Shown here in pieces: positions 2 through 27,028 of a DNA stretch of 31,544 nt (position 1 is the first letter of the stretch; every line of letters begins with the position of its first letter). The translations under genes were made by a program, and so were the position numbers. This DNA comes from a virus (lineage: Duplodnaviria; Caudoviricetes), in IMG/VR virus record IMGVR_UViG_3300025886_000101, positions 1 through 31,544 of that record. One strand, written 5' to 3'. The notes under the pieces are model-generated. The model saw only the letters and a program-made list of their open reading frames with translations, was not told the origin of the DNA and made no database searches.

Positions 2-3000
2 CTGTGCATTCTTAACTTTGCTTTTTATAAGATTATGGATCCCTCTTTGGAATGACGATCTACGGCCAACCTTTTCCCCTCTAGCAAAAGTCTCGGAAAC
101 TAATTTATGCTGCTCTATATTTTTAACCCCATGCTTTTTCATTACTTTATTAAGTGCTGAAAAGTTTGAGTTAATTTCGGAATGAAGCCTGCCACTCTTG
201 TAGTATTGATCACCAATAAACATTCCATCATCAGTCATAGTAAATCCAGTAAGAAAAGAATCACCATCTGAATCTACTAGCTTACTAATATCCATGAAGA
301 AGTCTGACATCTTTTGTTTATCAAGGTGCTTGGTATCAAATGATACTGCTTCATTAAATTTAGTTTTAGGGTCATTCAATTCAATGATCGTAGGCTGCCT
401 AAATACATTTCCATCTGCTTGGTCTAATGCACTTGAGACTTCCATCATCACTGACTTAACGGTCTCTGGGTTGCCTCGCATGGTCATTGAAATATTTGGG
501 GTCACTGCTGCGGCCCCATCTTCTGTGTAGCCTCCAAATCCTCTTTGAACATTTTGAACAACTAGTTCTTCACCAAATTGATCAGCAATCTTTTGTACCT
601 CCGCACCAAGTTGATCTGCCACTGCATCAGTAATTTTAGCAACCCCAGCATCTCTGTCTCCTGCACCCATACTTGATACTTGATCTTGTACAGCCTTTGC
701 ATTTGATGAGTCCCCCCAAGTATCTACCTCGAACGGAAACTTCTGGTCTGCGGTTTTATTATAAGTGTCCAGCATTGCCCCTAGGATACCCTGTGCTTCC
801 TTTGATATCTTTTTAGGATCAAGACCCTTTCCTGCCCTTAGTCCCTCCATTGCATCCTTCATGTGCTTAAACCTGTCACCGAATAAAACCAGCTTTTGGT
901 TGGACTCCAGTGGGTTCTCGAACTTGGTCAATGCCCATAAGATTTCTTGAGCATTTCTGGCCAACAGTTTTTCTTTTCCGAAGAACTTGGCTACACCTTT
1001 TTTATTTAAGGAATCAGCAATTAAACCGTCTACTGTTTGATGGGCATCATACAATGGCCCACCACCTTGCGGAGTTAATCCACCCTCATCTGCCACTTTG
1101 TAGTAAGACCACTTTGTTTCTTCAGTAAAGCCTGCCTTGGATCGTTCCTTCCATGTGGTTTCATTCCAATTATTAATACCGTCAACCTGTAAGGAATTAG
1201 CTTGCTGGAAATTCATCTCCGCTGGGTCATCAATCTTCATGTCCTTCTTGGCCGCCTTCCAGTATTTGCCATTTGGATCCATAGTTTTCTCGACTCTATG
1301 TTTTGGTATAGACCAGAGAAATGGTTTTGCATTGGCCGTGGGCCTGCCTGCTTTAATTACATAAGCTGGGTGAGCATACTCCTTGGCCGCCATGTCCCAC
1401 ATGTCTACGGTTGCGAGTCCATCTAATAACTTTTTTAGCTTTACGGTTTGCTTGGCCGATAGGGTCTGCTTCGGTTTAATTACATCCAAGGTCACTGCTG
1501 CTCGATTCATCAGCATATCAACATCCTTTTGCGTACCCTCCACCTTTGCAATTTCAATCAACTCGGCCAGCCCATTAAGATAGAAATTTCTTACCTTATC
1601 ACTAGCACCTTTGCGATCTGCATCAAGAACCTCAAAGTGTTTTCCACCCTTCCAATCAAGTGCAGTTTCTTGGGCTGCAACCTGTTGGTCTACTGGATTT
1701 ATTTTGTGTCCAGAGATACCAGTATGATGGCCCATGATTGAACGGCCAGACTTTGTCATGTTGGCGGCCACTGCACTACGAGGGGAACCAAGTGCTAGGA
1801 ATCTAAGCTGGAGATCTGCAATATCATATTTATCCCGTCCCTTTAGTGGGACATACTTTGCCATGTCTAGTGCAGTCCTGCCCATGTCAGAGTAAAAGCT
1901 TGCGGTTCGCTTAGTAAACTCTGGGTATTTCTTTTGGTAGTATTCGATCTTGTCAGTGATTTTATTAATCAAGGAAACCACATCATCGTAGTTCTTAAAC
2001 ATACCAGAAACTTTATTATTAATTACCCCCATTCTTGCAGGTAGTGCCACTGAATCTTGATAGGGATTGTCTGGGTAGTCTGCCATTGTAAGCTTGGCTT
2101 GAATCGCTTTCTTGTCCCCCTCTAGGTTCTTAATGACATCTACGGAAATAGATTCAAATGGAGGTTTAGGCGGCATGTATGCAATGCCATCAATATTGCC
2201 AGTGTCGAAGATTTTGCTGGTTACTGGGCCTTGGTCTTTAACTTGTGCGAGGAAAAGCTTATTTGTAATGATTGCCCTCTTTGCGGTAGCAAGGCCAACT
2301 CCATCTGACATTGGCTTCCCCCAACCAATTCGATCATCGGACATCAATCGATCTCGCAATCTTTTGTCTGTAATTGGTTTATTGAATTCAGAGAACTTAC
2401 CTGTTTTAAAATTATAATCAAAATCTCCAATTTCCTTAAACCTCTCTCTTGCCATGTTCATCTCTGCCATTGCAAGCCAAGCAATATCTTGCTCGTAATT
2501 CTTACCAAATGCTTTTACTTCTGCCTTTGAAAAACCATTGTCAACATTTGGTTTTAAGTGCTTCGTTGACTTATGCTTTAACGCACTGGAAAGCATAGCA
2601 GAAAGTGATCTAATTTGATTTATTTGACTTAATGAACTCGGCTTGTAGACCATATTATTAGCAGCCGCATAATCCAGTAAGATCTGATAGGAAGTAAAAC
2701 CAAACCCTTGTCCCTGCTCTGGTGCTTGTGACGAATCTACATGCAAAATGCTGCGACCACTTGAATCAACATCCAGTGGACTATGATATGCAAATATTGA
2801 CTCTGGGGAATTAAAATAATCATCTGCATCTGGGTCATTCAATGATTTCTTTACATTATCTGCCATGCTTTTTGTGACTAAATGAAAACCTATATTGTCA
2901 GCATCCTTATAAGGTAATACCTTAATTTTTCCACCAGATGCCTGCTGGGTGATCCGTTCAATATTCTTCGATTTAGTAGTGGGAACCTTAAATGCTTTGC

Positions 3001-6000
3001 TTGTATTCGTAACTGCTTCCCAGCCTTTTGTGATACGCTCTTTCATCCCTTTTTCTTTGAGAGCAGCACCTAGTTTCTCCACACCCTCTTTTGCTAAAGC
3101 ATCATCGAGGAAAGCAAACTTACCATCTTTATCTTTGCTAAACAACTGGGGCCTGCCCTGCATGGACATATTTATTTGGTCTACATCTGCACGGGTTGCG
3201 GCATCCCTTACTGATATAGTTTCCATGCCAGACCTTGTCCTTGCCTGCACCATATCATCTGCCTTGGGCGGCATATAACGGATGTCTGGGTTGCCAGAGT
3301 CAAATGTACCTTTGTTGCCAGTTGCTGATTTTATTTGTTCTGGAGAAAAAGCTATATATGAGTCTGCGCCCAACTTGCTCTGCTTGCCTTCATGTTCATT
3401 TCTATAAACTACCCCATCATATCCTTCGGATATCAAAGATTTTTTTACCTCAAGCAATGCTCTTCTGTTGGTATCTCTGTATACCTCATCAAACTTACTT
3501 CCACTACCATACTTAATTTCTATAGCTTCAGAATCTGGGGCAAGTTTGTATAAGCGATCAACTTCCCTTCTGTCTAAAACATCCGACAACTGCATTATAA
3601 ATGAATTTGCATCATCGTTGCCAGCATCCATTAATCTCAATGGATTTTTTATCGACAAGTAAACTGGCATTATATTCGTATTCTTTTTTCCAGATACAAT
3701 GTCATTTGCTTGATCAATGTTTCCGAAGTGTGGGCCTAAACTTCGTCCATCATTAAAAGTATTAAATTGGGTGTCAGTACCATGATGGACAACTAATGGT
3801 TGCCCTTTCTCATCCACCACTTTTGAGTTACCAAACCAATTCTTGAATGCCTTAGTGCCAGTGGTTCCTTTGTTTGGCGGCATAAGGTTGTTAATGATCC
3901 TTGCAGGATCCACATGCCTCTGCCCTGTCAATTGATCGGCCTTGCCTATCCGTTCTAACCTGCGACTACGATAGATAGGACGAGGGTTCTTGCTCTTTGC
4001 CCCACCGTCTAATGCAGCCAGCCAAGGATTAGCATCCGCATGGGCCTTGGATGATTTACCGAACATGGCATTTATAAAGTTCATCTTCTCTTTTGCCATG
4101 TCTGGGTTTCCATCCAAATTAAGCCAACCATGTTTTCCCTCGGCATGATTCAAATGATATTGATGCATTGCATCCATGAATGAATCCTTTGGGTTTGCGG
4201 TACCAAATAAACGAGTAACCTCGGCCTGCTGCTGGCGAAATATCTTATCAATATTTTTATACAACTGGTCTACGGAAATTGTACGAATATTGATATTCCC
4301 TTTTTGTGTAATTTCTATTCCGTAAGGAACCTCAAGGACATGCTGCACCTTTGCGTTAACATATTTACCTCCACCCTTTACGGTGGCCTTAAAGTAACTC
4401 AGCAACCAATCAGATCCACCTTTTTGATTAGACCCGTTTTTCAGTGATAAGTTTATCTCTTTAAGTAAAGCAATTTGAGCTTTATTCCATCCACCTTGGC
4501 CAGCCACTTCATCAATAATACTTTCATCAATAAACCTGCCTTCAAAGGATACTGCACCAGTGTCTTCATTTTTCTTTTCTCTAATATGCCCTGCTGGTAA
4601 TCCGTCTGCGGCATCCTTTCTAGAGATAGCATCAAGCAGGGAATCACTTAAATCCTTATTGTACTTTCTTTGCTGGGCTGGAGTCATGGCGGTATCTGGA
4701 ACGATGTTACCGTTCTCATCTACCTTCATAATTGTCCCTGCTCGTAACTGCTCAATAAGTTCTGGGTTCTTTGCAAACTCTGCACCCTTAATATCAATTA
4801 CATTCTGACCGTCATCTACTGGGAATTTTTCCTGTACCTTCTCCTTAGAAAGTCCCTCAATTTCACGGTTATATTTCCTAAGTAATTCTGTAACCGCAGG
4901 GATTCGTTGCATCCCACCAAAAACTCCATTGGGAGATTGCAGTAAACCGTCTGCACGAAATGTACCACCAAGGCGAGCAATCATGCTGCGAAGGAATGGT
5001 TTATTCTGTAACATAGGTGATGAGACTATTGTTCTCATCAATGCACCAGTTGGCCCCTCATGGAGATCCCTGTACCTTCTGTTGTCAGATAAAAAGAAAT
5101 CGGCACCATGCTCGGCCACAACTTCACGGGCAATTACTTCATCTGGAATAAGGTCAATTACTTCCTGTCTTGGTTTACCCTCTTCAAAGAAAAACTTCCC
5201 GTACTCATACTTAAAATCATCAAGCTTTGAGTTTGTCTTATACCCCTTGCCATCCTCACGCATGACTGGTTTTCCCTCAGAGTCTCTTAGAGTAAATTCT
5301 CCAGCTTTCTCAAGTAAATGATTTCCTAGCAATAAGTCAGTGAACAACCTAGACCCACCCGTTTCCTCTAGGTAGTGACTAATCTCATGCCTTACTAGCG
5401 GCTCAATGGCCCAAGCAGAATCTGTGTTTACCTCGATATATGAGGTTCCATCCACCCTGTACTGGCGGCCACCCTTACCATCCTTACCAAGTTGCTTGAA
5501 ATTAAATACGGTATCCTTGTACGACATGGCAGCATTTGCATATGCGATTTGCTCGCCCTTGCCCATTGCTCCAAAGGATTGCTTCATACTGGATGGCAAT
5601 AAATTCTTAGTAAAGTACTGGAGGGATCCATGCCTGCGTGATTGTATTTCTGCTGCACTCTTTCCAGATATCATACGGAATGGTTTTGATGCAGTGTAAG
5701 CACCTCCACCAAACGCAGCACCTCCACCCATGCCTCCGTACATAGCTTCCTCTTGCTCTCCACCACCAGCAACATACCCAAAGGCACCACCAATTGCCAT
5801 GCCCTTAGTGGTTTGATTTGCCAACCTTCCAATGCCCTCTACGGGTCTTCCAAGCTTTGTTTTATTAAGGACATCAACAATCATTTGTGATCCCTGTGAG
5901 AGTTGTCCCCTTGGGGATACTGCACGGTTTAAGACCTTGCCTTGGCCTGCACCAAAATTCTTTTCTAGTGTACCTCTTGCGGTAGAAAGAAATCCATCAC

Positions 6001-7522
6001 GATCAATGATCCTGTCAGTAATTGTTTCCCTGCCATTTGCACCTAGTCGCTGGAAGAAATTTAGTTCAGTAGCTGGCTCCATTAGTTCACGGCCAACCAA
6101 GGACATATCTCTACCAAACCTTGCCATGAGGGGGAGTCCTACCACGGTTCCTGCGGCCATCATGGAAAGCATTTCGTCATCTGTTAATAGGTCAGTGACT
6201 GCATATGCAGTCGTTCCTGCTGCTGCATAATTTACTGCCTTCCTTGCTATCCCATCTTGAAAAAGCTTAACTGCTTTCTCTTCTGGAATGCCCATTTTAA
6301 TTGCAGTGGTAATAGCAGTTTCTGCTGGTAGATCCTTTAAGAACCTTATCATGTTTCCAGCATTCTCAATTACTTTACCAGTCACAACCATTCCAGAACC
6401 AGCAAGGGTGCCAGTAAACGACTTCCTTCCCTTAATCGGAACACCCTTTATAGAACTCTCAATTAATTCTTTTACAGGATTTCCTTTCGGTAATGTGCCA
6501 GCAAATTTTAATAAAGCCTGTTGCTGCGGTTTTGCCATTGTCTGGATCTTATCTAAATTCTCTAAGATTTGACCGTCTAAGAACTGTATTTGTTTCTTTA
6601 CCGACTCTGATGCACCTCGGCCAAATGCACCCTTGCCCTTGTATTGACCAAAGTTCAATGCTTTCTGGAGGGTTGCCTGCTTTAATATCGCTTGTTTTGT
6701 GTCGTTTAGTAAAGCAATCTGTGAACCCCTAAACATCTTGTTGGTTAAGGATCCTCCAACTTTAAAGGCAGCACCAAATGGTATAAAGTTCGATGGGTCT
6801 GCCACCATAGAGGCACCCATTGCGGCCTGCCTATCTGGCTCAACCTCACCACTTGTGATCATTCTTTTTATCTCTGGATCCATGCCTGCCGTCATCCAGC
6901 TTGTGGCATTTTCTAGGTAAATATTCTGTCTTCTTTTCTCTACCTCGTTTACTTTCTTCCAGAACTCATAGGAACTATCAATATCCTCCTCGGACATATC
7001 ATCGTCCCAGAGCATATCCCAGACTCGACTACCTCCATGAATAAGCATGTCGTAATTGAGTTCAATATCTCCAAGCATTTGGAGATTGGTGGCCTTTGAC
7101 TTAGCTGCGTACTTCTTTCCTGCTTCAGTAAAATGAAAGTTAGATAAAAATCTTTCTGGAAAAGTTTTTGCCATCTGGCCCATGTCATCGACAATCATTT
7201 CTAAACCATCCATGAACATTTCGCCTGCACCTTTTTCGGACTTAAATGCTCCCTGCTGCTTAAAGAACTTAAATGTCTCACGGTCAACGAGCATGTCATC
7301 CATTGTGGCATCACGGGGTTCGCCTTGAACTTGTGGCTCAAATGGTTTGTTTGCAAGTAGTGGGTCTATCTGGGCATAACCTCCACCCTCTAGTGGCACC
7401 TTGCTGCCTTCTTGCGGCATAGGGAGTGCCGTCATCTTACCTATGTAATTTTCTTCTGCCTCGGCCCGTTGAAACATCTCTAACTCCTCTGGAGTCAGAT
7501 CCCTAGCTTCCTGTAAACTCAT
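2..7522 (-). CDS. Giant polyvalent / internal virion (ejection) protein, >2,507 aa, 3'-truncated by window edge
   Basis: ATG at 7522 overlaps the TGA of 7519..9138 (ATGA). It begins MSLQEARDLTPEELEMFQRAEAEENY. All segments I translated by hand are open in this frame, ending ...FQRGIHNLIKSKVKNAQ at the edge. An internal stop would have produced a long ORF in the track, and none is listed. It follows the ejection-protein genes and contains HEISH, ART-like, GNAT-like and HhH-like motifs. Confidence 0.92.
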   Translation of the reverse strand, partial: MSLQEARDLTPEELEMFQRAEAEENYIGKMTALPMPQEGSKVPLEGGGYAQIDPLLANKPFEPQVQGEPRDATMDDMLVDRETFKFFKQQGAFKSEKGAGEMFMDGLEMIVDDMGQMAKTFPERFLSNFHFTEAGKKYAAKSKATNLQMLGDIELNYDMLIHGGSRVWDMLWDDDMSEEDIDSSYEFWKKVNEVEKRRQNIYLENATSWMTAGMDPEIKRMITSGEVEPDRQAAMGASMVADPSNFIPFGAAFKVGGSLTNKMFRGSQIALLNDTKQAILKQATLQKALNFGQYKGKGAFGRGASESVKKQIQFLDGQILENLDKIQTMAKPQQQALLKFAGTLPKGNPVKELIESSIKGVPIKGRKSFTGTLAGSGMVVTGKVIENAGNMIRFLKDLPAETAITTAIKMGIPEEKAVKLFQDGIARKAVNYAAAGTTAYAVTDLLTDDEMLSMMAAGTVVGLPLMARFGRDMSLVGRELMEPATELNFFQRLGANGRETITDRIIDRDGFLSTARGTLEKNFGAGQGKVLNRAVSPRGQLSQGSQMIVDVLNKTKLGRPVEGIGRLANQTTKGMAIGGAFGYVAGGGEQEEAMYGGMGGGAAFGGGAYTASKPFRMISGKSAAEIQSRRHGSLQYFTKNLLPSSMKQSFGAMGKGEQIAYANAAMSYKDTVFNFKQLGKDGKGGRQYRVDGTSYIEVNTDSAWAIEPLVRHEISHYLEETGGSRLFTDLLLGNHLLEKAGEFTLRDSEGKPVMREDGKGYKTNSKLDDFKYEYGKFFFEEGKPRQEVIDLIPDEVIAREVVAEHGADFFLSDNRRYRDLHEGPTGALMRTIVSSPMLQNKPFLRSMIARLGGTFRADGLLQSPNGVFGGMQRIPAVTELLRKYNREIEGLSKEKVQEKFPVDDGQNVIDIKGAEFAKNPELIEQLRAGTIMKVDENGNIVPDTAMTPAQQRKYNKDLSDSLLDAISRKDAADGLPAGHIREKKNEDTGAVSFEGRFIDESIIDEVAGQGGWNKAQIALLKEINLSLKNGSNQKGGSDWLLSYFKATVKGGGKYVNAKVQHVLEVPYGIEITQKGNINIRTISVDQLYKNIDKIFRQQQAEVTRLFGTANPKDSFMDAMHQYHLNHAEGKHGWLNLDGNPDMAKEKMNFINAMFGKSSKAHADANPWLAALDGGAKSKNPRPIYRSRRLERIGKADQLTGQRHVDPARIINNLMPPNKGTTGTKAFKNWFGNSKVVDEKGQPLVVHHGTDTQFNTFNDGRSLGPHFGNIDQANDIVSGKKNTNIMPVYLSIKNPLRLMDAGNDDANSFIMQLSDVLDRREVDRLYKLAPDSEAIEIKYGSGSKFDEVYRDTNRRALLEVKKSLISEGYDGVVYRNEHEGKQSKLGADSYIAFSPEQIKSATGNKGTFDSGNPDIRYMPPKADDMVQARTRSGMETISVRDAATRADVDQINMSMQGRPQLFSKDKDGKFAFLDDALAKEGVEKLGAALKEKGMKERITKGWEAVTNTSKAFKVPTTKSKNIERITQQASGGKIKVLPYKDADNIGFHLVTKSMADNVKKSLNDPDADDYFNSPESIFAYHSPLDVDSSGRSILHVDSSQAPEQGQGFGFTSYQILLDYAAANNMVYKPSSLSQINQIRSLSAMLSSALKHKSTKHLKPNVDNGFSKAEVKAFGKNYEQDIAWLAMAEMNMARERFKEIGDFDYNFKTGKFSEFNKPITDKRLRDRLMSDDRIGWGKPMSDGVGLATAKRAIITNKLFLAQVKDQGPVTSKIFDTGNIDGIAYMPPKPPFESISVDVIKNLEGDKKAIQAKLTMADYPDNPYQDSVALPARMGVINNKVSGMFKNYDDVVSLINKITDKIEYYQKKYPEFTKRTASFYSDMGRTALDMAKYVPLKGRDKYDIADLQLRFLALGSPRSAVAANMTKSGRSIMGHHTGISGHKINPVDQQVAAQETALDWKGGKHFEVLDADRKGASDKVRNFYLNGLAELIEIAKVEGTQKDVDMLMNRAAVTLDVIKPKQTLSAKQTVKLKKLLDGLATVDMWDMAAKEYAHPAYVIKAGRPTANAKPFLWSIPKHRVEKTMDPNGKYWKAAKKDMKIDDPAEMNFQQANSLQVDGINNWNETTWKERSKAGFTEETKWSYYKVADEGGLTPQGGGPLYDAHQTVDGLIADSLNKKGVAKFFGKEKLLARNAQEILWALTKFENPLESNQKLVLFGDRFKHMKDAMEGLRAGKGLDPKKISKEAQGILGAMLDTYNKTADQKFPFEVDTWGDSSNAKAVQDQVSSMGAGDRDAGVAKITDAVADQLGAEVQKIADQFGEELVVQNVQRGFGGYTEDGAAAVTPNISMTMRGNPETVKSVMMEVSSALDQADGNVFRQPTIIELNDPKTKFNEAVSFDTKHLDKQKMSDFFMDISKLVDSDGDSFLTGFTMTDDGMFIGDQYYKSGRLHSEINSNFSALNKVMKKHGVKNIEQHKLVSETFARGEKVGRRSSFQRGIHNLIKSKVKNAQ
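915..1900 (-). other. HhH-GPD / DNA-glycosylase-like domain within giant protein
   Basis: Ordered motifs SFY...LALGSPRSAVAAN...DKVRNFYLN...ATVDMWDM...LY...IADSLN...NAQEILW resemble the SP..V..N / KV.xFY.N / TVDxW / QA.LW pattern of phage HhH-glycosylase-like domains. Confidence 0.6.
2540..2780 (-). other. GNAT-like acetyltransferase domain within giant protein
   Basis: ILHVDSSQAPEQGQGFGFTSYQILLDYAAANNMVYKPSSLS...MLSSALKH. QxxGxG acetyl-CoA motif A followed by a helix. Confidence 0.55.
3278..3860 (-). other. ART-PolyVal-like ADP-ribosyltransferase domain within giant protein
   Basis: KAFKNWFGNSKVVDEKGQPLVVHHGTDTQFNTF...GPHFG...IMPVYLSIKNPL...GYDGVVYRNEHEG...YIAFSPEQIKSATGNKGTFDSGNPDIRY matches the recognisable ART-PolyVal signature. 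Confidence 0.85.
5095..5400 (-). other. Zincin-like metallopeptidase (MPTase-type) domain within giant protein
   Basis: PLVRHEISHYLEETG (HExxH at 5389..5375) and downstream EVIAREVVAEHGADFF (ExxAE third-ligand-like motif, ~5140..5095). Confidence 0.7.
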
Positions 7523-9138
7523 TGTGGGTCTATGGTCTGAAGTTTTCCATCAATCATTACTACCCGTTGGCCATTGGGCATTGTCCGTAATAATTTAACC
7601 ACCTTCTCTTCTCCTTTAACTAGAACCCTAACACTCTGCCCGTCTTGTGCCTCCTCGACTGACTTAGCTTGATTCTCTGGCAGGAATTCTTTGGGGATAT
7701 TATTATACTCCTCACTGAAATATCGTTCCCTTATATTCTTTTTGAACTCCCCATAGGCTGGGTCATTTGGATTAACAAATGCATTGGACAGTTCATTAAT
7801 TGCAGACTCAGTCCCCTTAACTTTTAACTCAGATGCTACTTGACTAAATGCCTTTGCGGCCTGTCTGAGATCATCTCTTGATTTCTTATCCAGTGTCCCA
7901 TCCTTTGCTTTCTGTACCGCCCTATGAAACCTATCAACAAGGCCAGAGGATCCGCTCACTCTGTTAATATCATCCTCAGTCAAGATGCCTGTAGGCTGCA
8001 ACATCCTCGCTAATTTCTCAATGGCAGCAGTATCAGTTAATGGATTGTTTTCGCCCTTGTCATTTTTTGTGCCCAGAAAATCAATTAAATATTTTGATGA
8101 CTCAATAACGGTATCTGCTTCCGTTATGCGATTCTCTTTCTCGTAGATTTTCTTTTGCGATAAGATTTCCTTTGGCTCCACTACTGTTACCTGTTGGGCC
8201 ATTTTTTCCATCTGCTCTGGTTTCAACTGCAACTCGTTTGCTTCAGCAAAATCTTGTACTTGCTGCATAGCATCACCTTTCTCAAAGACTACACGGTTAG
8301 TCGGATTAAAACTGGTGGACATATCCGCAGCCTTTTCCTCATCTTGTAAGTTTTTAATCCGTAAGTTTTTCTCGGTGGTGTCTAGAGACTGAAGTTCCAT
8401 CTTATCTTTTCTCTCTTGCAGTTTCTGCATTGCCCCAGCTTTAAGCATTGCTTGGTATGGAGATGTAACTGGGCCATAAGCTTCAGCAAACTTTTGTGGA
8501 TCCAGTTCACCCATAGGTATAACATCTTTAAGTGCAGACTTATCCTTCTTTAGGTCAGATAATTTCTTACCAAGGTCATAAAATGATTTTGTGTATTCCT
8601 TATCCGAGATTCCACCTTCTTCAAGTTGCTGAGTAATATCCTTTATGTCAGTCCTTACACTCGATATCTTGGAATCAACTTCTGTCACCTTTGGGTTCTT
8701 AACTGCTCCAGACATTCGATTGAAATGATCAAGTTCACCTTCAGTTTTTGCTTGTTGTTGCTGAAATAAATAGTTCTGCCTTTTCTCCACTTCAGCTTGC
8801 CTCTGCATAGCAACCTCACCCTGCACTTGGGTCATAAATTCTTTATACCCTCCTGCCTCTTTAATCGCACTAGTTACATGCTTGTGTGCCTCTTCTGGGT
8901 TATTGATATCAAGGTTTCGTTGCTTTGCATACTTCTTTCCCTCTGGAGTAAGTAACCAGTCAGATGCACTCTTCTCAAAACCTTTTTTCTCAAAGTAAGA
9001 ACTTGCAACTTTGCCAACTGCAGCCCCTAGCTTTTCTAATCCTGCACCGACTGATCGTCCATAGGATTCTGCACCTCTGGTGATTGGAGAGAAGTCAGAT
9101 TGATTGACTCTAATTGGTGTGTAAAATGGTGATGCCAT
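7519..9138 (-). CDS. Putative internal virion / DNA ejection protein
   Basis: 539 aa, helical and Q/K/E-rich, with a Gly/Ala N-terminal segment. Lies between the pilot-like protein and the giant protein and overlaps both neighbours. Confidence 0.65.
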   Translation of the reverse strand: MASPFYTPIRVNQSDFSPITRGAESYGRSVGAGLEKLGAAVGKVASSYFEKKGFEKSASDWLLTPEGKKYAKQRNLDINNPEEAHKHVTSAIKEAGGYKEFMTQVQGEVAMQRQAEVEKRQNYLFQQQQAKTEGELDHFNRMSGAVKNPKVTEVDSKISSVRTDIKDITQQLEEGGISDKEYTKSFYDLGKKLSDLKKDKSALKDVIPMGELDPQKFAEAYGPVTSPYQAMLKAGAMQKLQERKDKMELQSLDTTEKNLRIKNLQDEEKAADMSTSFNPTNRVVFEKGDAMQQVQDFAEANELQLKPEQMEKMAQQVTVVEPKEILSQKKIYEKENRITEADTVIESSKYLIDFLGTKNDKGENNPLTDTAAIEKLARMLQPTGILTEDDINRVSGSSGLVDRFHRAVQKAKDGTLDKKSRDDLRQAAKAFSQVASELKVKGTESAINELSNAFVNPNDPAYGEFKKNIRERYFSEEYNNIPKEFLPENQAKSVEEAQDGQSVRVLVKGEEKVVKLLRTMPNGQRVVMIDGKLQTIDPQ

Positions 9139-10796
9139 TAGAATGCCTCCTTAATTTTGGTGTCCATCCAAGCTCGGATTCTTGCTTTCAATCTTGGTTT
9201 ATTTTTAATGAACTTAGCAAATCTTTCACCGAAAGTAAGGTAAGTTGATCTAAACCAGAACGGACTCACGAATAACATCCAGTGCCTAAATAACTTCCAT
9301 GCAGGATTGTGTTCTCCGTAAACTTCTCTTGCTACCCAACAACCTTTCCCTCTACTTGCAAACCCTCCTGCGAGACTACCTATACCCGAAAATAACCCAC
9401 CAATCATTGCACCCTCCCTAGCTTGGTCAGCACCATAATTTGCTGCATTGTAATTATTAATCATTGCTGACTGGTTTGCCATAAACTCTGCTCCTTGAGC
9501 AGGGTTAAACAATTGTGGGCCAGCATTGATTCCACCTGCTGCATTACCATACAGATTCTGTCCACTACCTACTGCGGCACCAGATGTTCTTCCCGTGATT
9601 GCCATAAATGGGTCTGCTGATGTAGCTTGTTCTAATCCGATCCGTTGAGCCGCAAATGCTTGATCCATCTGCCTACCTTGATCTGCCATGCCAATGACTT
9701 GACCAGCAAATTGCCTTCGCTCATTAAGTCTCTGTCGAGAGTACATATCATTATTTGCAACTTCATCAACTACCGCAGAGAAATCCCTGCCTCTTCCTCT
9801 TGCCCCCATAGCTGACCTAGATGCTTGCTCGATGTTTCGTCTCTCACGATCTGTAAGTGAACCTCCTAGCGCAAGTTCGTCCTGTGCCATACCGATCATC
9901 TGAGTTCGTAAACCTCCGTGATCCGTGCCTTGCTCTGCTAGTGTATTGTATGAATCTAATGCTTCTTGGATACCACCTTGTTTGCGATAAGCCTCTGTTA
10001 ATTGTCCTCCAAATTCATTAGCTAAACCAATCTCCGTTTGTGTTTGTTGATACTTAGTCCGCTCAAGCATATCTTGCTCAAGCTGCGATGTTCCCATGAA
10101 GTTTCCATCAATATCAAATCCAGCCTTTCTTGTATCACCGTCATAAAACTTAGTTAGTTGGTTTCCTGCAACCAAACCAATTGCACCAGTTCCACCCTCT
10201 ACTGAGTTTGCCTTGTTCTTATTGTATATAATATTCCCAGCAGCATCTTTTTTGTAGATTGCTTTACCCTGCTGGTCATTAATCCAGTTCTGTGCTTCAG
10301 TCTTTGAGTTAAAAACCTTTTCCGATCCATCATTACCAGTGACAATAAATTGTTCTTTAGGGATGGCAATTTTGGCAGTAGCGTTTTTCCGACCGACTCC
10401 AAGTGCGTTCGACATAGTAACACCAAAAGACCCAACACCACCCAAGACTCCTCCTCCAAACAGGGGAAGAGTGCCAGCCATGGCTTTAGTGAGTCCATCA
10501 TGGGCCGCCCTTATCTCTGCGGAATTATCTGATATAGTGTAATCGTCCTGTGAATTCGTGTAGCCTGTAATCTGCCTACCTTGGTCATCATATTTTATCT
10601 CATTACCAAACAGTCCCTCCTTGACGAGTTCCTGTTCCATTCTGGCATATGCAGGCCGACCATAACTTTGATTAGATTCTGCACGAAACAACGCTGGTGC
10701 CATGTTAACCTGTGCCTCCAGTGCCTCTTGAAATGTTTCTTCATAATTGTTTGTTACTGGTGCTGGCGCACTCCCTCCTCCTCCGTACATACCCAT
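9138..10796 (-). CDS. Putative DNA pilot / ejection protein with C-terminal CWVAREVYG (CFI-box-like) domain
   Basis: 552 aa. MGMYGGGGSAPAP N-terminus, Gln/Ala-rich helical body, Gly-rich hydrophobic segment GAMIGGLFSGIGSLAGGF, then GKG-CWVAREVYG...FRHWML...YLTFGERFAKFI. Confidence 0.7.
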   Translation of the reverse strand: MGMYGGGGSAPAPVTNNYEETFQEALEAQVNMAPALFRAESNQSYGRPAYARMEQELVKEGLFGNEIKYDDQGRQITGYTNSQDDYTISDNSAEIRAAHDGLTKAMAGTLPLFGGGVLGGVGSFGVTMSNALGVGRKNATAKIAIPKEQFIVTGNDGSEKVFNSKTEAQNWINDQQGKAIYKKDAAGNIIYNKNKANSVEGGTGAIGLVAGNQLTKFYDGDTRKAGFDIDGNFMGTSQLEQDMLERTKYQQTQTEIGLANEFGGQLTEAYRKQGGIQEALDSYNTLAEQGTDHGGLRTQMIGMAQDELALGGSLTDRERRNIEQASRSAMGARGRGRDFSAVVDEVANNDMYSRQRLNERRQFAGQVIGMADQGRQMDQAFAAQRIGLEQATSADPFMAITGRTSGAAVGSGQNLYGNAAGGINAGPQLFNPAQGAEFMANQSAMINNYNAANYGADQAREGAMIGGLFSGIGSLAGGFASRGKGCWVAREVYGEHNPAWKLFRHWMLFVSPFWFRSTYLTFGERFAKFIKNKPRLKARIRAWMDTKIKEAF

Positions 10797-10799
10797 GAC

Positions 10800-11249
10800 T
10801 TATTTCTCCTTATCGTAAGTTCTTAAACTTTTTAATTTTCTCATATGACCCCAACCACCTGCTAAATAAGCAATGTGCAGGAATACATCTAGATCTCCAC
10901 ATCGAACCACACATGCAACCTGCCTATCCCATTCGCATTCACTCTCTCCCATTGCATCACCGTCTAAAGTCCTATTTGCTAAACTAACAAGTAAGGGGAA
11001 GATGGATTCCTTATGAGCATTGTAAAATGGATTAAACGAAATGTGATTTACGAACTCTACTAGTTCATAAAATATCTGCTCCTTGGATGGTTCTTTATCT
11101 CGGTCAACCAAGTCATCAAACATGTGGTTAAAATTCCAAAGTCTCCATGCGAACTCATAGGCATGTACATTTCCAGCGGCCACCAGCTTACACCAGTCTT
11201 CTGCCTCTGGGTTCTTGGCGATCTCGTCCTCTGTCCTACAGTAGTCCAT
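10800..11249 (-). CDS. Isoprenoid-synthase / prenyltransferase-like DDxxD protein
   Basis: 149 aa, predicted helical, with HMFDDLVDRD (DDxxDxD Mg-diphosphate-binding-type motif) and NPFY. Directly upstream of the pilot gene. Confidence 0.55.
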   Translation of the reverse strand: MDYCRTEDEIAKNPEAEDWCKLVAAGNVHAYEFAWRLWNFNHMFDDLVDRDKEPSKEQIFYELVEFVNHISFNPFYNAHKESIFPLLVSLANRTLDGDAMGESECEWDRQVACVVRCGDLDVFLHIAYLAGGWGHMRKLKSLRTYDKEK

Positions 11250-13735
11250 TAGAGTAAGGCAGGGATAAGTTTGGAGTTCTTGTCGATACCACTGATGGTT
11301 GGATCACTTGCAATTGCAGGAGGTAGCTTTGTTTCCAAAGACTCATCAACTTGTCCCTTAATGTACTGGATCAGTTCGCCATTGTCTTGAGTCATGGGTT
11401 GGTCTCCGACATTTGCGTGAAGAATACTTGTTCCATTGTCACGGAAGATTCTAGCACCAGAAATTACCAATGGGGTGCTGCCAGTGTTTTGTAATTTAAT
11501 GTCAGCAACGGCAGTGTTCACACGGTAATTCATGTGATCGATTGCATCGATTGCACCAAACCACTCCTCGATGCCAGTGGACGAAGTTGTTTGCTTTACA
11601 TAAAAAGCATAGAACTCTCTGGCATCTGCAATCCCATCTCCATCCGAAATATCGATTTCTACATTTGGATAATCAGCGGACAGGGTAGTGAGATTGTCTG
11701 CATTAATTCCGTTGTCGTTATAAATGGTATCTGCCTGTTGGTCTGCCTCGAAACTAATTCCCACACTGGTTGCGATACCAAAAGCCTCGTAGGGCAGAAA
11801 TGCTGATGTCCCTGCTTGGCAGGTTATTCGCAGGCGTATGTTATCACCCACGCTCACTTCTTGGCCTGTGTATGTACCAGAGGATGTCACTTTGTTTCCT
11901 GCCGTTCCTGCCACAACCAAGTTTTCTACCTCTAGGTTTTTAGTGATATTGAAAAGTTGCAGGGTTGCAGTTGCCTCAACATTTGTAACTTCCCAAGGCA
12001 GGACTGTGTTCTGCCCAAAAGAACCAATGACCTCGGCATTATTACTCAGAGTAATTGTTCCAGTGGTCTGGATATTTCCGACAAAACTGGATGCCTTGAT
12101 CGTGATTGTAGTTCCATTAAACGCAAAGACATCAGTCGCTTGATCATCCACCACTACATCATATCCTCTGGCATTAATCGTGTTACCATCTCTAGTTACA
12201 ATGGTCTGGGTTTCCCCTGCGAAGTTATCTACCAGAAATGCCTTTGCCCTATTGTAAAACTTCTGTGGTGTATCAATCTCACTATAGGCATCTGTAGTTG
12301 CTCTTGGGTCAGTGATTGATGCATCGTCAAATAATACCCAGTCTACCTCCAGTTCACCAAGTCCTTTAAGTGCTTGGGTTGTAGAGGACAACATATGTCC
12401 ATAAGAACAAAACTTAAAATTAAAGTCATCCGCATTGGAATTGGAATCACTCCTGCGATCCACTTTGTAAAAGCCTCCAAATCTATCTGTGTCCCAGTCT
12501 AGGTAAGTAGGTGCTTGCATATCTGTTTCACGCCACCTATTTCCACTGAAAGTGTTAAAGTATTGAGTAGCGGAAGAATCATTAACTTTGTATTCTAGAA
12601 ATTGCGTAGCAGTAAGGACTCTAAATTTTGCAATATCTCCGCTTGTATCTGTGGTTTTTTCGTACTCAATTGAACCAGTGTAATCATATGATATTGTTTT
12701 ATTATTATTGCTAAGAGTTGCAGTAGCTAATGTTGGTTGGGAATAATTACGAGCAGAGATGGATGTTATGGAAATTGATTTTGCGAAGTTAGATGGATTG
12801 TCTTGCAAATATAACTTGACTCCTTCTATGCCAGTTGCACTTGTATCTTTAATGTTAAAAGACACTTCTTTATAGATAAAAGTGTTTCCCATCTGGGCTT
12901 CTGGCCCAGTAGTGTTCCTCCACATCGATCTAACATCTGATCCAGTTGCAGAGTTCACGATATGATGGTCTTGAATCGAATGCTCAGTGTTTGCACAATT
13001 TCCAATATCGTAATTAAAAATATTTTTACTTACATCAAAGTCGAAAAGTTCTGCCTCATAATACTCCCCAAAAACTCTACTGATTGCACCCTCACGGAAT
13101 ACGATCTTCTGCTCCGTCATGCGGTAGGCATCCATCACTGAAATGCCTCCTGCTAGTACAATATTTTGTGCGCGATCAGTTGAGATAGTTCCGTTGCCAA
13201 ACACTCTTATTTCTAAGCTAAATCTGTCACTAGCATTTAGAAAAACAGTTTCTTCAATGTCTGCATTTCCCCCAAAGTATAAGCCTCTACTACACTCGAT
13301 AACTCCACCTCTACAAATAAAATTAGCGCTAGATGCACCAAAGTTAATCGCATTGTCAGATGGATGCCAGTTGGAGTAACCCCTGCCAGTGATCATCAAT
13401 CCACAACCAGAGGAGTACCCCACTTTCCCATCACTCGTAGTGGTTTTTACTCCGTAATTATAAGTTGCCCCTGCATCAATCTTTAACACTGGTTCATTGA
13501 CACTATTTGATCCACTTCCTTTGTCATGATGGAAAATCATCAACTCCCTGTCTGGGTCATGTGATAAAGTTCCATCAATTAGCAATCTAAGATCACCCAT
13601 ATCATAGGTAACCTTGCCTCTTGTTGGATCATCATCGTAAACAGTAACCCCAGTGATTCCACTCAATCCACTAAGGTCTGTGTCAGTGCCACTTTGTGTG
13701 ATTACTCCAGTTGTAGCATTTAGTGAAAAACTCAT
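11249..13735 (-). CDS. Large beta-rich tail spike / receptor-binding protein
   Basis: 828 aa, T/S/G/D/N-rich beta-strand-like composition, last gene of the tail fibre cluster. Confidence 0.6.
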   Translation of the reverse strand: MSFSLNATTGVITQSGTDTDLSGLSGITGVTVYDDDPTRGKVTYDMGDLRLLIDGTLSHDPDRELMIFHHDKGSGSNSVNEPVLKIDAGATYNYGVKTTTSDGKVGYSSGCGLMITGRGYSNWHPSDNAINFGASSANFICRGGVIECSRGLYFGGNADIEETVFLNASDRFSLEIRVFGNGTISTDRAQNIVLAGGISVMDAYRMTEQKIVFREGAISRVFGEYYEAELFDFDVSKNIFNYDIGNCANTEHSIQDHHIVNSATGSDVRSMWRNTTGPEAQMGNTFIYKEVSFNIKDTSATGIEGVKLYLQDNPSNFAKSISITSISARNYSQPTLATATLSNNNKTISYDYTGSIEYEKTTDTSGDIAKFRVLTATQFLEYKVNDSSATQYFNTFSGNRWRETDMQAPTYLDWDTDRFGGFYKVDRRSDSNSNADDFNFKFCSYGHMLSSTTQALKGLGELEVDWVLFDDASITDPRATTDAYSEIDTPQKFYNRAKAFLVDNFAGETQTIVTRDGNTINARGYDVVVDDQATDVFAFNGTTITIKASSFVGNIQTTGTITLSNNAEVIGSFGQNTVLPWEVTNVEATATLQLFNITKNLEVENLVVAGTAGNKVTSSGTYTGQEVSVGDNIRLRITCQAGTSAFLPYEAFGIATSVGISFEADQQADTIYNDNGINADNLTTLSADYPNVEIDISDGDGIADAREFYAFYVKQTTSSTGIEEWFGAIDAIDHMNYRVNTAVADIKLQNTGSTPLVISGARIFRDNGTSILHANVGDQPMTQDNGELIQYIKGQVDESLETKLPPAIASDPTISGIDKNSKLIPALL

Positions 13736-15050: not shown

Positions 15051-15433
15051 GCGTTACCTCCATCCAAGTCAAATGCATCTACATAGTCTGGTTCTGAGTC
15101 TGCTTCACCTCCGTCAATCACTGCATCTACAAAGTCAGTATTTGCAACTGAGACCCACTTGCTAGATTGGGAATTATATTGCAGGACTGAGAAATCTTCT
15201 GGGTTAGTTGCCTCAACATCTGTGACATCATCCAGTGCGACCGATCCTCCATTCCCAGAGGGTAATCCATTAAGATCACCAGAGATGTTATTGATTACCG
15301 CATTATCAATTGTGAGAGTAGGGTATTCAGTCGGAAACTCAATATCTGGAGTTACTGCCTCTTGGAATAAAGTAGGTTGAAACTCTACACCAACAACTGG
15401 ACGGGCAACAGTGACTCTGGGATTAGTTGCCAT
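15047..15433 (-). CDS. Acidic tail-associated protein (probable start MATNPRV)
   Basis: ATG at 15433 overlaps the nozzle gene end. Contains the LDDVTDV...VLQYNSQSSKW fibre motif and two C-terminal (I/L)DGG motifs. Confidence 0.7.
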   Translation of the reverse strand: MATNPRVTVARPVVGVEFQPTLFQEAVTPDIEFPTEYPTLTIDNAVINNISGDLNGLPSGNGGSVALDDVTDVEATNPEDFSVLQYNSQSSKWVSVANTDFVDAVIDGGEADSEPDYVDAFDLDGGNA

Positions 15434-17024
15434 AATTATTAGCACTCCTTCCACCATGCACGAATGCCTCTATGCCCACACTTTTTAGGTCAATACGACC
15501 TCCAGTATTCTTTACATCCACGGATGCCGAATAACCCCTCTGTCGGATATTAAATCGTGAAAGAGTATTGTTTGTTCCATTAGATGCAGATTGTCTGCTA
15601 ATGACAGAAGTATCTGGTGCTTTGGTATGCACCTTGATTTCCATTTCAGAATCTCCCTCACTGGAATAATTTAATGATCCACGAACAAACTTTTTTACAT
15701 CCCTGCTTTGTAGAGCATAGTCTCTTGTGCGAACTCTACTGACAATTGGAACTCCATTGTCGGTCTCTTCTGAATCATAGATAAAAACATTATTGTCAGA
15801 CAGGATATAAAGGTCTGGCCCTAATGTTTCCATATCCAGAATCTTGATGTTTGTGTCTTGAAATGTGTCTATTGATTCCCAGACCGAAGTTAAGGAATTG
15901 TAAACTGCAATTGCAGAGCAATCATTGTGGCTTGAGTCGAGCATGGGGAATGCGAAGTAGACCCTATTTCTATGGTACTTGACTATGCACTTTTCAATGT
16001 CATCCAAGTTCACCTTTTCAATGAATGGTGTAATTGGTTTCGACAATGGTTGCTGATCTAAAGTGACTTTGGATATCGCAACCCCCAAACCTTTGGCTGG
16101 GTCACTAGATGGTACAAGCACTTGCACATTGCCTTCGCTTGAGACGAAGTAAGTGTATGATCCATTTTGTGTGAATGCTCTCTTCCCTGCGATGCCATAC
16201 TGCCTAGAGATTTCATAACTAGCGGAGTTACCTTCCAGTGCATGGACATTATTTATTAAATGAATTGATTCCTTGTTGAAGACCAATAATTGGTTTTCCA
16301 TGAATGGTGCAAATCCAAGGGTGATATCACTAGTTCCCTTGTTGGCATAGAAAGTATTTATTGGGCTAAAATTATTAGCATCAAAAATATCTGAGAATGC
16401 AATCGAGGTTGGCGAGTCATCGTAATGGGGAGTGATTATCCTGTTCGCAAAATGGATGCCGAATGGAGCATTAGGACAGGCAAAGAAAGTATCTTCTGTG
16501 ATGCTTGGTTCTTCTGGTAAATCAACAATGGTTGAACCTAATTGACCATCCCAAATTTTCGGTCTCCGTCCACCAGAAAAAAGTATTACTTTATCAAATG
16601 CCTGTATTCCAAAAACATCATCTGATTCTGCAAAGGGTGTAGATAAAGATTGATCAATAGATGAGTAGTCTGACCACTGGTAAAATATATTAGACCATAC
16701 TTGATCGTTATCCGCATAGTCTGTTGAAATATCAGTTGCTTTACTTCCGTAAATCTGACTTGGAGTGATGATTAAAATGTCTTCTCGATTGTTCACTGGA
16801 TCGAGAAATTTAACTAACGCTTTTCCATTCTCTATTGCTCCGACTGATCGGAGTCCTTTGCGAGTTGAGATCACTCCTTGATTAATCCTTACATTTTCTG
16901 CGACTTGTAAAGTCCCTGCTTGCAGGAGAACTGGTTCACTCTGTTGGTCTAGACCCATGAATGCAGGGTCACCATCCTCCATGAATGGATCATCTAATTG
17001 ACCATGTGAACGAAATCGAGGCAT
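15423..17024 (-). CDS. Tail nozzle / tail tubular protein B-like (DNA stabilisation) protein
   Basis: 533 aa, beta-propeller-like composition (FANRII, IAFSDIFD, LLVFNKESIHLI, YGIAG, PLSKPI), size and position typical of podovirus nozzles. Confidence 0.7.
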   Translation of the reverse strand: MPRFRSHGQLDDPFMEDGDPAFMGLDQQSEPVLLQAGTLQVAENVRINQGVISTRKGLRSVGAIENGKALVKFLDPVNNREDILIITPSQIYGSKATDISTDYADNDQVWSNIFYQWSDYSSIDQSLSTPFAESDDVFGIQAFDKVILFSGGRRPKIWDGQLGSTIVDLPEEPSITEDTFFACPNAPFGIHFANRIITPHYDDSPTSIAFSDIFDANNFSPINTFYANKGTSDITLGFAPFMENQLLVFNKESIHLINNVHALEGNSASYEISRQYGIAGKRAFTQNGSYTYFVSSEGNVQVLVPSSDPAKGLGVAISKVTLDQQPLSKPITPFIEKVNLDDIEKCIVKYHRNRVYFAFPMLDSSHNDCSAIAVYNSLTSVWESIDTFQDTNIKILDMETLGPDLYILSDNNVFIYDSEETDNGVPIVSRVRTRDYALQSRDVKKFVRGSLNYSSEGDSEMEIKVHTKAPDTSVISRQSASNGTNNTLSRFNIRQRGYSASVDVKNTGGRIDLKSVGIEAFVHGGRSANNYGN

Positions 17025-22604: not shown

Positions 22605-23657
22605 TTAAGAAAGAGTGTACTTACCGTGATCCAATCCACCAGAATATGATTTCAAGGAGAACACGGACTCAATGATTGAGCGTGGGCCTCCACCTAAGTC
22701 TGGCAACTCACGAACAGAAGTTTCCTCTGCATAGCAAGCTTCAAGCTGGGCCATATTCAAGATGAATAATGTTTTCTGTCCAACGCTGGCATCGTAATCA
22801 CCGTTTGCATCTCTGGCATCCTGTTCAAGGAAACTGGAGAGGTTTAATGTGATTGTACCGAAGTCAGATTCAATGATATCAACGGCAGCACTCAAGCGAC
22901 CCTCGTCGGTGTCACGATTCGATACAACAAGATTGTTGGTACGAGGTGTGAACAATGAGAAGTTACTGATGGTTTTCTTAACCTGCGTTCCGCAAAGACC
23001 GTAAAAGGTTTTGTCGGATTCACCAGTTTGCTCATAGATGCTTTGCAAGATATCACGCAAGTCTTCTTCTGTTGCAGAAGCAGCAGCAACCGACTTAATG
23101 GATCCAGCAGGAGTAAGAAAGTCAGAAGGAACTGGTAAGGTTGCCTGTGCTGAAGAACTAATCCATTTGCCAAGTCCACGGGTCTGGTACGGGGAACTAT
23201 TAGTTTCCTGTGCAGTCTCCTGTGAAGAGCAAAGAGTAGACTCTTGATCTCGTTTTGCAGCTACTAAAGCCTTAGCGATAGAGTTTGCCATTTCCTTCTT
23301 ATAACCAACTCCAGCGACATCAGATGTCATGTTGGCCAAGCGAGAGACTTTAGGCACCCTACGAAGGTACTGAAGGTACACTGAACATTTGGTACGGTCA
23401 TCGTAATTCTCAAAATCATTTGAGTCGATGTCGGCACCGTCAATTGGAAGGTTATCCGAAATGCCGCCACTGTAAGTTGCAGTGCGAACTAAATTGTCTT
23501 TATGTTTGTCGAGTGGCCATTCAACGAATGAATTTTTTGGTGCAGCACCTTTTTTAACCTGCGACATGAATGGGCAACTCTTACGATCCACGATGGTCAT
23601 AAGGTCACTCAATGATTCTCTTTTAAGGGATTGATCCCGTTCTACTATTCCAGCCAT
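22605..23657 (-). CDS. Major capsid protein (SU10 / DUF5309-like, HK97 fold)
   Basis: 350 aa. KRESLSDLMTIV..PFMS, EWPLD, KRDQE, RGLGKWI, VDIIESDFG. A GGAG Shine-Dalgarno lies upstream and the gene follows the scaffold. Confidence 0.88.
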   Translation of the reverse strand: MAGIVERDQSLKRESLSDLMTIVDRKSCPFMSQVKKGAAPKNSFVEWPLDKHKDNLVRTATYSGGISDNLPIDGADIDSNDFENYDDRTKCSVYLQYLRRVPKVSRLANMTSDVAGVGYKKEMANSIAKALVAAKRDQESTLCSSQETAQETNSSPYQTRGLGKWISSSAQATLPVPSDFLTPAGSIKSVAAASATEEDLRDILQSIYEQTGESDKTFYGLCGTQVKKTISNFSLFTPRTNNLVVSNRDTDEGRLSAAVDIIESDFGTITLNLSSFLEQDARDANGDYDASVGQKTLFILNMAQLEACYAEETSVRELPDLGGGPRSIIESVFSLKSYSGGLDHGKYTLS

Positions 23658-25991: not shown

Positions 25992-26765
25992 TTATAATTC
26001 AAAATGAAATTCAGAAACCTTGATTGGTGCATACGGGCAATTTCCATGAAACTGGTGCAGCTTGTCGTTTACTAAGTCTTGCCATTTAGAAAAATCCAAA
26101 AGCACATTCATGTTGTCCAGTAAGTAAACTGGCTTTAACCCTGCCACATTTGCGGCAGCCAAATGATACTCCACTGGATAACACATATAATGCCAGTTGT
26201 GCTGCAATGATCTTATTTGCATGGCATATTCTGGGTCTGGGTCATCAATCTGACACATATCACTCACAATAACTTTGCCGCCAGTTTTAAGTACCCTTGC
26301 GACTTCCTTGTAGGTTTTTATCAATGGGCGGTACCCAATAGATTGATCAAATAGAATTAAGTCAAATGTCCCAGCCTCATATGGCATATCATCATAACTT
26401 GCCACCGAAAGTTCTGCGTTTTTTGGCAGGCCAGTTCCTCCGTGACATTTCTGAATTTGTCTATTTGAAATATTTAAGCCATTGAAAAATGCATCTGGAT
26501 GCTTTTCTGCGAGGTATTTTAATGTGGTGCCAATACCGCATCCTGCATCAAGGATGTTTTTTCTGCTTGGATTTATTTTTCTTCTAGCAAACTGTAAATC
26601 CAAATGAGTATTAAAATCATTTGAGAGCAAGCCAGTTTGAAAAAGATCGTAATTAGCATCGATGTAAACCTCTGCAACATCGTCCCAATATTGAGTCAAA
26701 TCAATCAAACTCTTACAGGTAGCATCATAGTATGCAGTTAGTAAATCAAACTTATCTTTATTCAT
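25992..26765 (-). CDS. Class I SAM-dependent methyltransferase (small-molecule / lipid type)
   Basis: ILDAGCGIG motif I, GLNISNRQI, MPYEAGTFDLI, RVLKTGGKVIVSD, N-terminal YYD. No DPPY/NPPY/PC DNA-MTase motif. Confidence 0.88.
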   Translation of the reverse strand: MNKDKFDLLTAYYDATCKSLIDLTQYWDDVAEVYIDANYDLFQTGLLSNDFNTHLDLQFARRKINPSRKNILDAGCGIGTTLKYLAEKHPDAFFNGLNISNRQIQKCHGGTGLPKNAELSVASYDDMPYEAGTFDLILFDQSIGYRPLIKTYKEVARVLKTGGKVIVSDMCQIDDPDPEYAMQIRSLQHNWHYMCYPVEYHLAAANVAGLKPVYLLDNMNVLLDFSKWQDLVNDKLHQFHGNCPYAPIKVSEFHFEL

Positions 26766-27028
26766 TTCTTATATTCCTCTAGTCTGGATTTTAGTCCGCT
26801 AATCGCATCTACTCGTCCAGCAGCATGAGCAAACTTTGTAACATCGTTCTTTGGATCCGATACATCGTTAACCGCATCGAGAAGCATATTGTCCACGATT
26901 GAATCGAGTGCCTGCCATAACTTGGCATCCTCACCAATTTCATTAAAGATCCGCTTCACATCATCCCCACTCATGGGATTTGGATATTTTACCAGAGTCG
27001 CTTTCTTACCTTTGCAAAAACAAAACAT
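26762..27028 (-). CDS. Small portal-adjacent protein
   Basis: 88 aa, helical, HAAGRVDAI motif. Overlaps the portal stop. Confidence 0.7.
   Translation of the reverse strand: MFCFCKGKKATLVKYPNPMSGDDVKRIFNEIGEDAKLWQALDSIVDNMLLDAVNDVSDPKNDVTKFAHAAGRVDAISGLKSRLEEYKK

Follow-up and report, generated by a model that had tools for sequence, protein, structure and literature searches.

The 31,544-nucleotide (nt) window analysed here comprises positions 1 to 31,544 of IMG/VR virus record IMGVR_UViG_3300025886_000101, a linear, 74%-complete record of a short-tailed marine phage (Duplodnaviria; Caudoviricetes). Its minus strand carries a podophage virion module, including tail fibre genes, in which a gene for a 149-amino-acid (aa) protein with a DDxxD motif lies just ahead of that for a 552-aa putative first ejection, or pilot, protein (Table 1). 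The two frames described in the original prediction, one containing HMFDDLVDRD and the other starting MGMYGGGGS, were confirmed, with the stop of the DDxxD gene ending at 10800 and a 3-base gap (10797-10799) before the 552-aa open reading frame. This 3-nt gap is seen again in many close relatives. Enzyme and pilot share one reading frame, a stop and one codon standing between them (window 10797-10802). Towards its end the 552-aa protein carries GAMIGGLFSGIGSLAGGFASRGKGCWVAREVYG, and its C-terminal letters are GKGCWVAREVYG. In homologue loci, the DDxxD gene also directly precedes ejection-type genes, bearing out the predicted genomic linkage to pilot-type genes. It thereby occupies the IVP-A-type place immediately before the first ejection gene, hereafter the slot; the accessible part of one study describes the same order in T7-like modules, from tail genes to the slot gene and three ejection proteins (PMC4819975).

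The 149-aa protein belongs to PHROG 21390, a family annotated as of unknown function and its sole library match (E 1.2e-11; relatives to 6e-27). Iterated profile searches identified 93 family proteins out of 912 candidates, and the window protein was aligned with 90 sequences (n=91) after exclusion of one fragment, one short sequence, and one 285-aa hit. As had been anticipated, DDxxD is conserved in 91/91 aligned homologues, gathered by profile search, a method favouring conserved motifs; D45 and D49 are invariant and D46 occurs in 90/91. The presence of the motif in a single protein is barely above chance, with 7.7% of 20,000 shuffles of the window protein containing it. Residues H42, K/R52, R/K116, H135, R137, and R143 are also conserved among homologues at 21-30% identity. 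Members were found in aquatic phage contigs and at 24 loci in named genomes, including Pseudomonas, Halomonas, Cupriavidus, Telmatospirillum, and Desulfovibrionaceae, with Achromobacter phage CF418P1, in which the partner protein begins MGC, as the sole match among 50,697 phage records. One member, in Billgrantia pellis (L225:5001-5447), lies between a 1591-aa gene and one of 110 aa that starts Met-Tyr, and none of its neighbours is obviously phage-derived. At another locus, a 148-aa gene that by eye resembles an HNH/endonuclease VII insertion (L047:6444-6890) splits the enzyme from a partner starting MSFC.

The AlphaFold2 model of the 149-aa protein (predicted local distance difference test 95.7; predicted template modelling score 0.89) is all-helical with zero strands, and DDxxD stands at the end of the helix formed by residues 28-49, a feature expected of class I isoprenoid synthases. 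A structure search of 48,161 chains placed class I isoprenoid-synthase-fold proteins at all of ranks 1-29, with moderate Z, and prenyl or terpene enzymes in 45 of the 50 listed rows. The top match was a small synthase subunit, and MoeN5 stood at ranks 4-5. Between 130 and 147 residues of the model aligned to the N-terminal part of synthases; for trans-prenyl diphosphate synthases, HepS-type small subunits, and MoeN5, the likeness covers the N-terminal half only, at 4-13% identity and a root-mean-square deviation above 3 Å. Among 42 Foldseek matches listed, all 9 with a query template modelling score of at least 0.44 were prenyl or terpene enzymes, and weak profile matches to phytoene synthase and CrtM coincided on DDxxD. 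No second conserved Asp-rich motif was detected in the 91-sequence alignment. The protein is thus predicted, as first suggested from its motif, to adopt a half-size class I isoprenoid-synthase (trans-prenyltransferase-like) fold.

Replacement of the slot gene among close relatives is the rule, although not an absolute one. In sister phages with the same flanking genes, including the 828-aa upstream gene, a 112-aa gene replaces the DDxxD gene and the 552-aa orthologue starts MGGG rather than MGMYG, sequence agreement between window and sister pilots resuming after about residue 9. This common 112-aa family is alpha/beta, its fold unconfirmed. Another slot occupant is a clear GNAT, and one family aligns to HlyC acyltransferases (probability 78%, E 1.8e-5; score 37.9 versus at most 19.3 in 30 shuffles). 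The expected alternation with GNAT-type genes therefore held in part: the DDxxD gene swaps with small genes, including the HlyC-like family, but exclusion is not strict, with another slot-type gene also present in 7/85 enzyme loci. At two loci (L009 and L014), the DDxxD gene accompanies a gp13-like gene, and the pair is followed first by a MYG protein and next by an MC protein, an order that may reflect a separate substrate for each enzyme.

The start of the pilot protein changes with the slot gene. Covariation was assessed on 74 pairs, taken from earlier loci and from the 80 best among 580 confirmed viral stretches and restricted to pilot orthologues of at least 100 bits with a complete 5' end, duplicates removed. 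A start of the form M(G[ML])Y was found in 15/15 pilots accompanied by the DDxxD gene and in 0/59 accompanied by another gene (41 of the 112-aa family and 18 others); most enzyme-bearing rows came from enzyme searches, and these proportions are therefore not a population estimate. A tree of 73 of the 74 orthologues, built with the first 12 residues omitted, contains seven label changes, six of them forced by strong branches, and places the window pilot as sister (Shimodaira-Hasegawa-like approximate likelihood ratio test 99) to an orthologue with another slot gene and without the Tyr. Within the enzyme's own 29-row clade, Tyr occurs within residues 2-4 of 27/29 downstream proteins, and in the remaining two GMYG comes after a leader, even though these proteins are not all homologous and some fall outside the pilot orthologue set. 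The residues flanking the Tyr vary (M, L, D, or V before; G, S, A, or V after). A wider 37-row clade has Cys at the Tyr position in three rows, and two of its Tyr rows (L018 and L115) depend on a doubtful 63-aa frame. Because the N-terminal Tyr is present in all close relatives with the DDxxD gene and absent with another gene, any lipidation is likely to fall on Tyr. Judged from these sequences, the modified site would be the N-terminal Tyr, not the C-terminus, and the prenylation hypothesis now has a named candidate residue, Tyr4.

Based on these observations, we propose that Tyr4 is alkylated before packaging by the enzyme, which would hold a prenyl diphosphate of host origin through DDxxD-Mg2+, a proposal that we rate close to evenly balanced, leaning slightly towards the negative. 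A host isoprenoid chain would be moved onto the Tyr of the (G)xYG tag of the putative first ejection protein, with Cys possibly serving as acceptor at the same place in sister clades, and the active site may be completed by dimerisation or by the substrate itself. By analogy with T7 IVP-A, the enzyme would act in the infected cell before packaging and itself stay outside the virion. The lipid might then help the N-terminus of the ejected protein to engage a host membrane, or route the protein into the capsid. The module formed by the DDxxD gene and the pilot gene is real, conserved, and uncharacterised; its prenylation activity is plausible but unproven.

Some observations qualify the Tyr rule. 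Downstream proteins start MSG or MST, without Tyr, throughout an 11-row clade and in most of a second clade of 37 rows. Different clades may use different acceptors, or the Tyr rule may reflect binding. The Tyr codon also lies only 12 nt from the enzyme stop, a physical linkage that could itself produce covariation. In Pseudomonas and Halomonas prophages, a gene further along whose product begins M[SGA]YG was considered as a rescue of the Tyr rule and rejected, because phage TL-2011c carries this gene without the DDxxD enzyme. Pilots at eight loci (L011, L013, L222, L223, L227-L229, and L231) have a leader of 20-30 residues before the Gly-rich tag, which implies proteolytic exposure of the tag.

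An unlikely alternative keeps the same N-terminal tag as the modified site but changes the donor or the atom, with another diphosphate-activated group, for instance a MoeN5-like nucleotide- or phosphoglycerol-linked one, or attachment to the alpha-amine. DDxxD binds Mg-diphosphate in general, MoeN5 is among the leading structural matches, the distant clades start with Ser or Gly and lack Tyr, and a small-molecule-type S-adenosylmethionine (SAM) methyltransferase adjoins the gene in some loci; yet every fold neighbour uses prenyl diphosphates, and covariation with Tyr that is strict in the near clade points to acceptance by a side chain. It is similarly improbable that the protein lacks catalytic activity and serves as a chaperone or loading adaptor, reading the N-terminal tag and escorting the ejection protein into the procapsid, its acidic motif binding a metal or a partner. 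Such a role would suit a half-size fold lacking the second motif and best matched by a small synthase subunit, and covariation is equally compatible with binding and catalysis; in addition, the accessible text on T7 reports IVP-A as required for morphogenesis and not retained in the virion (PMC4819975). Against it, the invariant D45 and D49, together with the other conserved residues listed above, resemble an active site, and the other slot occupants are transferase-like.

The SAM methyltransferase encoded in the window is of the small-molecule type and sits 15 kb from the DDxxD gene, but is 48% identical to one lying directly upstream of that gene at another locus (L010:7216-8001); the same arrangement occurs at L015:7225-8001. 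Such a gene was found in 4/29 records with the DDxxD gene and 0/20 without it, and is absent from most complete records. It is a possible, not an established, optional partner. A role in isoprenoid metabolism is quite improbable; here the protein would work by itself or through a prenyl synthase of the host, the methyltransferase perhaps taking part, and the Tyr would simply travel along with the gene. Such a role would accord with the resemblance to small subunits of heteromeric synthases, the abutting Tyr codon, and the methyltransferase counts. Against it stand a Tyr retained while its flanks vary and across non-homologous downstream proteins, a constant location within the ejection block at a slot used by protein-modifying enzymes, and the patchy occurrence of the methyltransferase.

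Table 1. Features on the window, in order of decreasing coordinate
Feature	Position	Strand	Remark
Portal gene	27028-29154	-	
257-aa SAM methyltransferase gene	25992..26765	-	
SU10-type capsid gene	22605-23657	-	
Head-closure-like gene	15423-17024	-	
828-aa upstream virion/tail-type gene	11249..13735	-	
DDxxD gene, 149-aa product	10800..11249	-	
DDxxD codons, D45-D46-x-x-D49	11103..11117	-	End of helix 28-49
552-aa putative first ejection (pilot) protein	9138..10796	-	Label from position
N-terminal MGMYG of the 552-aa protein	10782..10796	-	Tyr4 at 10785-10787, proposed acceptor; covaries with DDxxD gene
Gly-rich hydrophobic segment, residues 462-482	9351..9413	-	Mean hydropathy 1.32 over 19 aa
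C-terminal CWVAREVYG domain, residues 486-552	9141..9341	-	Starts at the protein's only Cys
539-aa second putative ejection protein	7519..9138	-	Basis: position
Large polyvalent protein, third putative ejection protein	2..7522	-	At least 2507 aa, cut by window end

The 552-aa protein, considered as a podophage first ejection protein of T7 gp14 or P22 gp7 type, had no PHROG or Pfam match with its own sequence, and none of note for 30 aligned orthologues; nor did it give a profile match to one member of PHROG 4287, such proteins diverging fast. Since no family match was obtained, the label "pilot" is inferred from position in the podophage virion module and from relatives, one of which has a neighbour matching PHROG 4287 "DNA ejection protein". 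The pilot-like character first ascribed to the protein thus stands on its genomic context and not on family membership. The 539-aa protein likewise had no match in the family-library searches. The polyvalent protein carries ART-PolyVal (ADP-ribosyltransferase) and LPD37 domains, and is probably injected along with the DNA.

The original prediction had also coupled the Gly-rich helix and the CWVAREVYG C-terminus of the pilot to the enzyme, a tie that the data did not support. The CWVAREVYG domain is present in 14/85 enzyme loci and in 58/59 loci with another slot gene, the latter having been fished using that domain; being scarce with the enzyme and common with other slot genes, it is therefore independent of the DDxxD enzyme. 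Its place is taken by a PAPS-reductase-like next gene in two enzyme loci and by an S74 chaperone in CF418P1, which fits a separate, removable C-terminal module. From its sequence, the domain is at most a distant relative of CFI-box-CTERM (NF041770; 13.2 bits, E 0.057, profile positions 1-66/69, below the curated cut-off of 40 bits), and structural look-alikes terminate unrelated bacterial proteins (Nif11, pilin-like, and polysaccharide-export). Placed after a hydrophobic helix, it may be a self-removing or sorting module.

Among known systems, ComQ, StheQ, and PalQ come closest, sharing with the phage enzyme the isoprenoid-synthase superfamily fold (predicted here), the first Asp-rich motif, a gene beside that of the substrate, and a proposed acceptor that is aromatic and close to a terminus. 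In the accessible part of one report, ComQ and StheQ belong to the same superfamily, prenylate a peptide encoded next door, and use just the first motif for metal binding (bioRxiv 10.64898/2026.08.29.745113). No sequence match to ComQ, StheQ, or PalQ was detected, and the phage enzyme departs from the ComQ type by its roughly half length, the lack of the second (pseudo) motif region, and a proposed Tyr rather than Trp acceptor; the candidate substrate is moreover a 552-aa structural protein in a virion context instead of a pheromone peptide, with Trp found only at residue 171 and in the C-terminal domain. A 2026 review (PMC13290415) gives Trp as the target of every characterised ComQ-type enzyme, and the words "phage" and "virus" are absent from its accessible text, as are "prenyl" and "pilot" from the main text, as accessible, of a paper on polyvalent proteins (PMC5512222).

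T7 IVP-A (gp13) is likewise a small gene heading the block of ejection proteins, and 2 loci contain both a gp13-like gene and the DDxxD gene; the DDxxD protein differs from IVP-A/GNAT slot genes in being all-helical and not of the GNAT alpha/beta fold. Hardies et al., in the part of their text that is accessible, report that IVP-A or the syntenic acetyltransferase-like gene is replaced by another family in phiRIO-1, PA11, and CW02 (PMC4819975). A tblastn search gave no match to phiRIO-1, CF418P1 being the only hit among the 50,697 phage records. In the open literature, to which the search was confined (subscription journals and supplements lying outside), no paper on this system was found.

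Taken more broadly, short-tailed phages might possess interchangeable enzyme-plus-tag cassettes that lipidate the N-terminus of the first ejection protein, a tentative generalisation that we consider rather doubtful. These cassettes would combine acyltransferase-like genes with Gly, Ser, or Cys starts, or a minimal DDxxD prenyltransferase, sometimes with a methyltransferase, with a Tyr (or Cys) tag. The HlyC-like slot genes (L147:2322-2792, L177:2932-3414, and 11 similar loci) stand ahead of Gly-starting pilots and are a candidate phage N-acylation system in their own right. A 122-aa slot family (L129:3621-3989, L143, L166, and L192) has partner pilots starting Met-Cys in 4/5 cases, the fifth having a leader, and could form a third enzyme-plus-tag pair.

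These findings bear on how the ejection proteins of podophages get into the capsid and pass through the envelope. To our knowledge, a substrate has never been shown for the small gene of T7 gp13 type that heads the ejection block. A slot where acyltransferase-like and prenyltransferase-like genes replace one another, with a matching N-terminal tag, offers a precise and cheap test, with one enzyme, one residue, and known adduct masses. If the proposed prenylation is true, it would reveal a new phage lipid modification and a half-size enzyme of isoprenoid-synthase fold, and a Tyr-directed member would join a group so far known for Trp only. Should the cassette reading hold, phage-encoded prenylation of a virion protein would explain the long-unexplained IVP-A slot.
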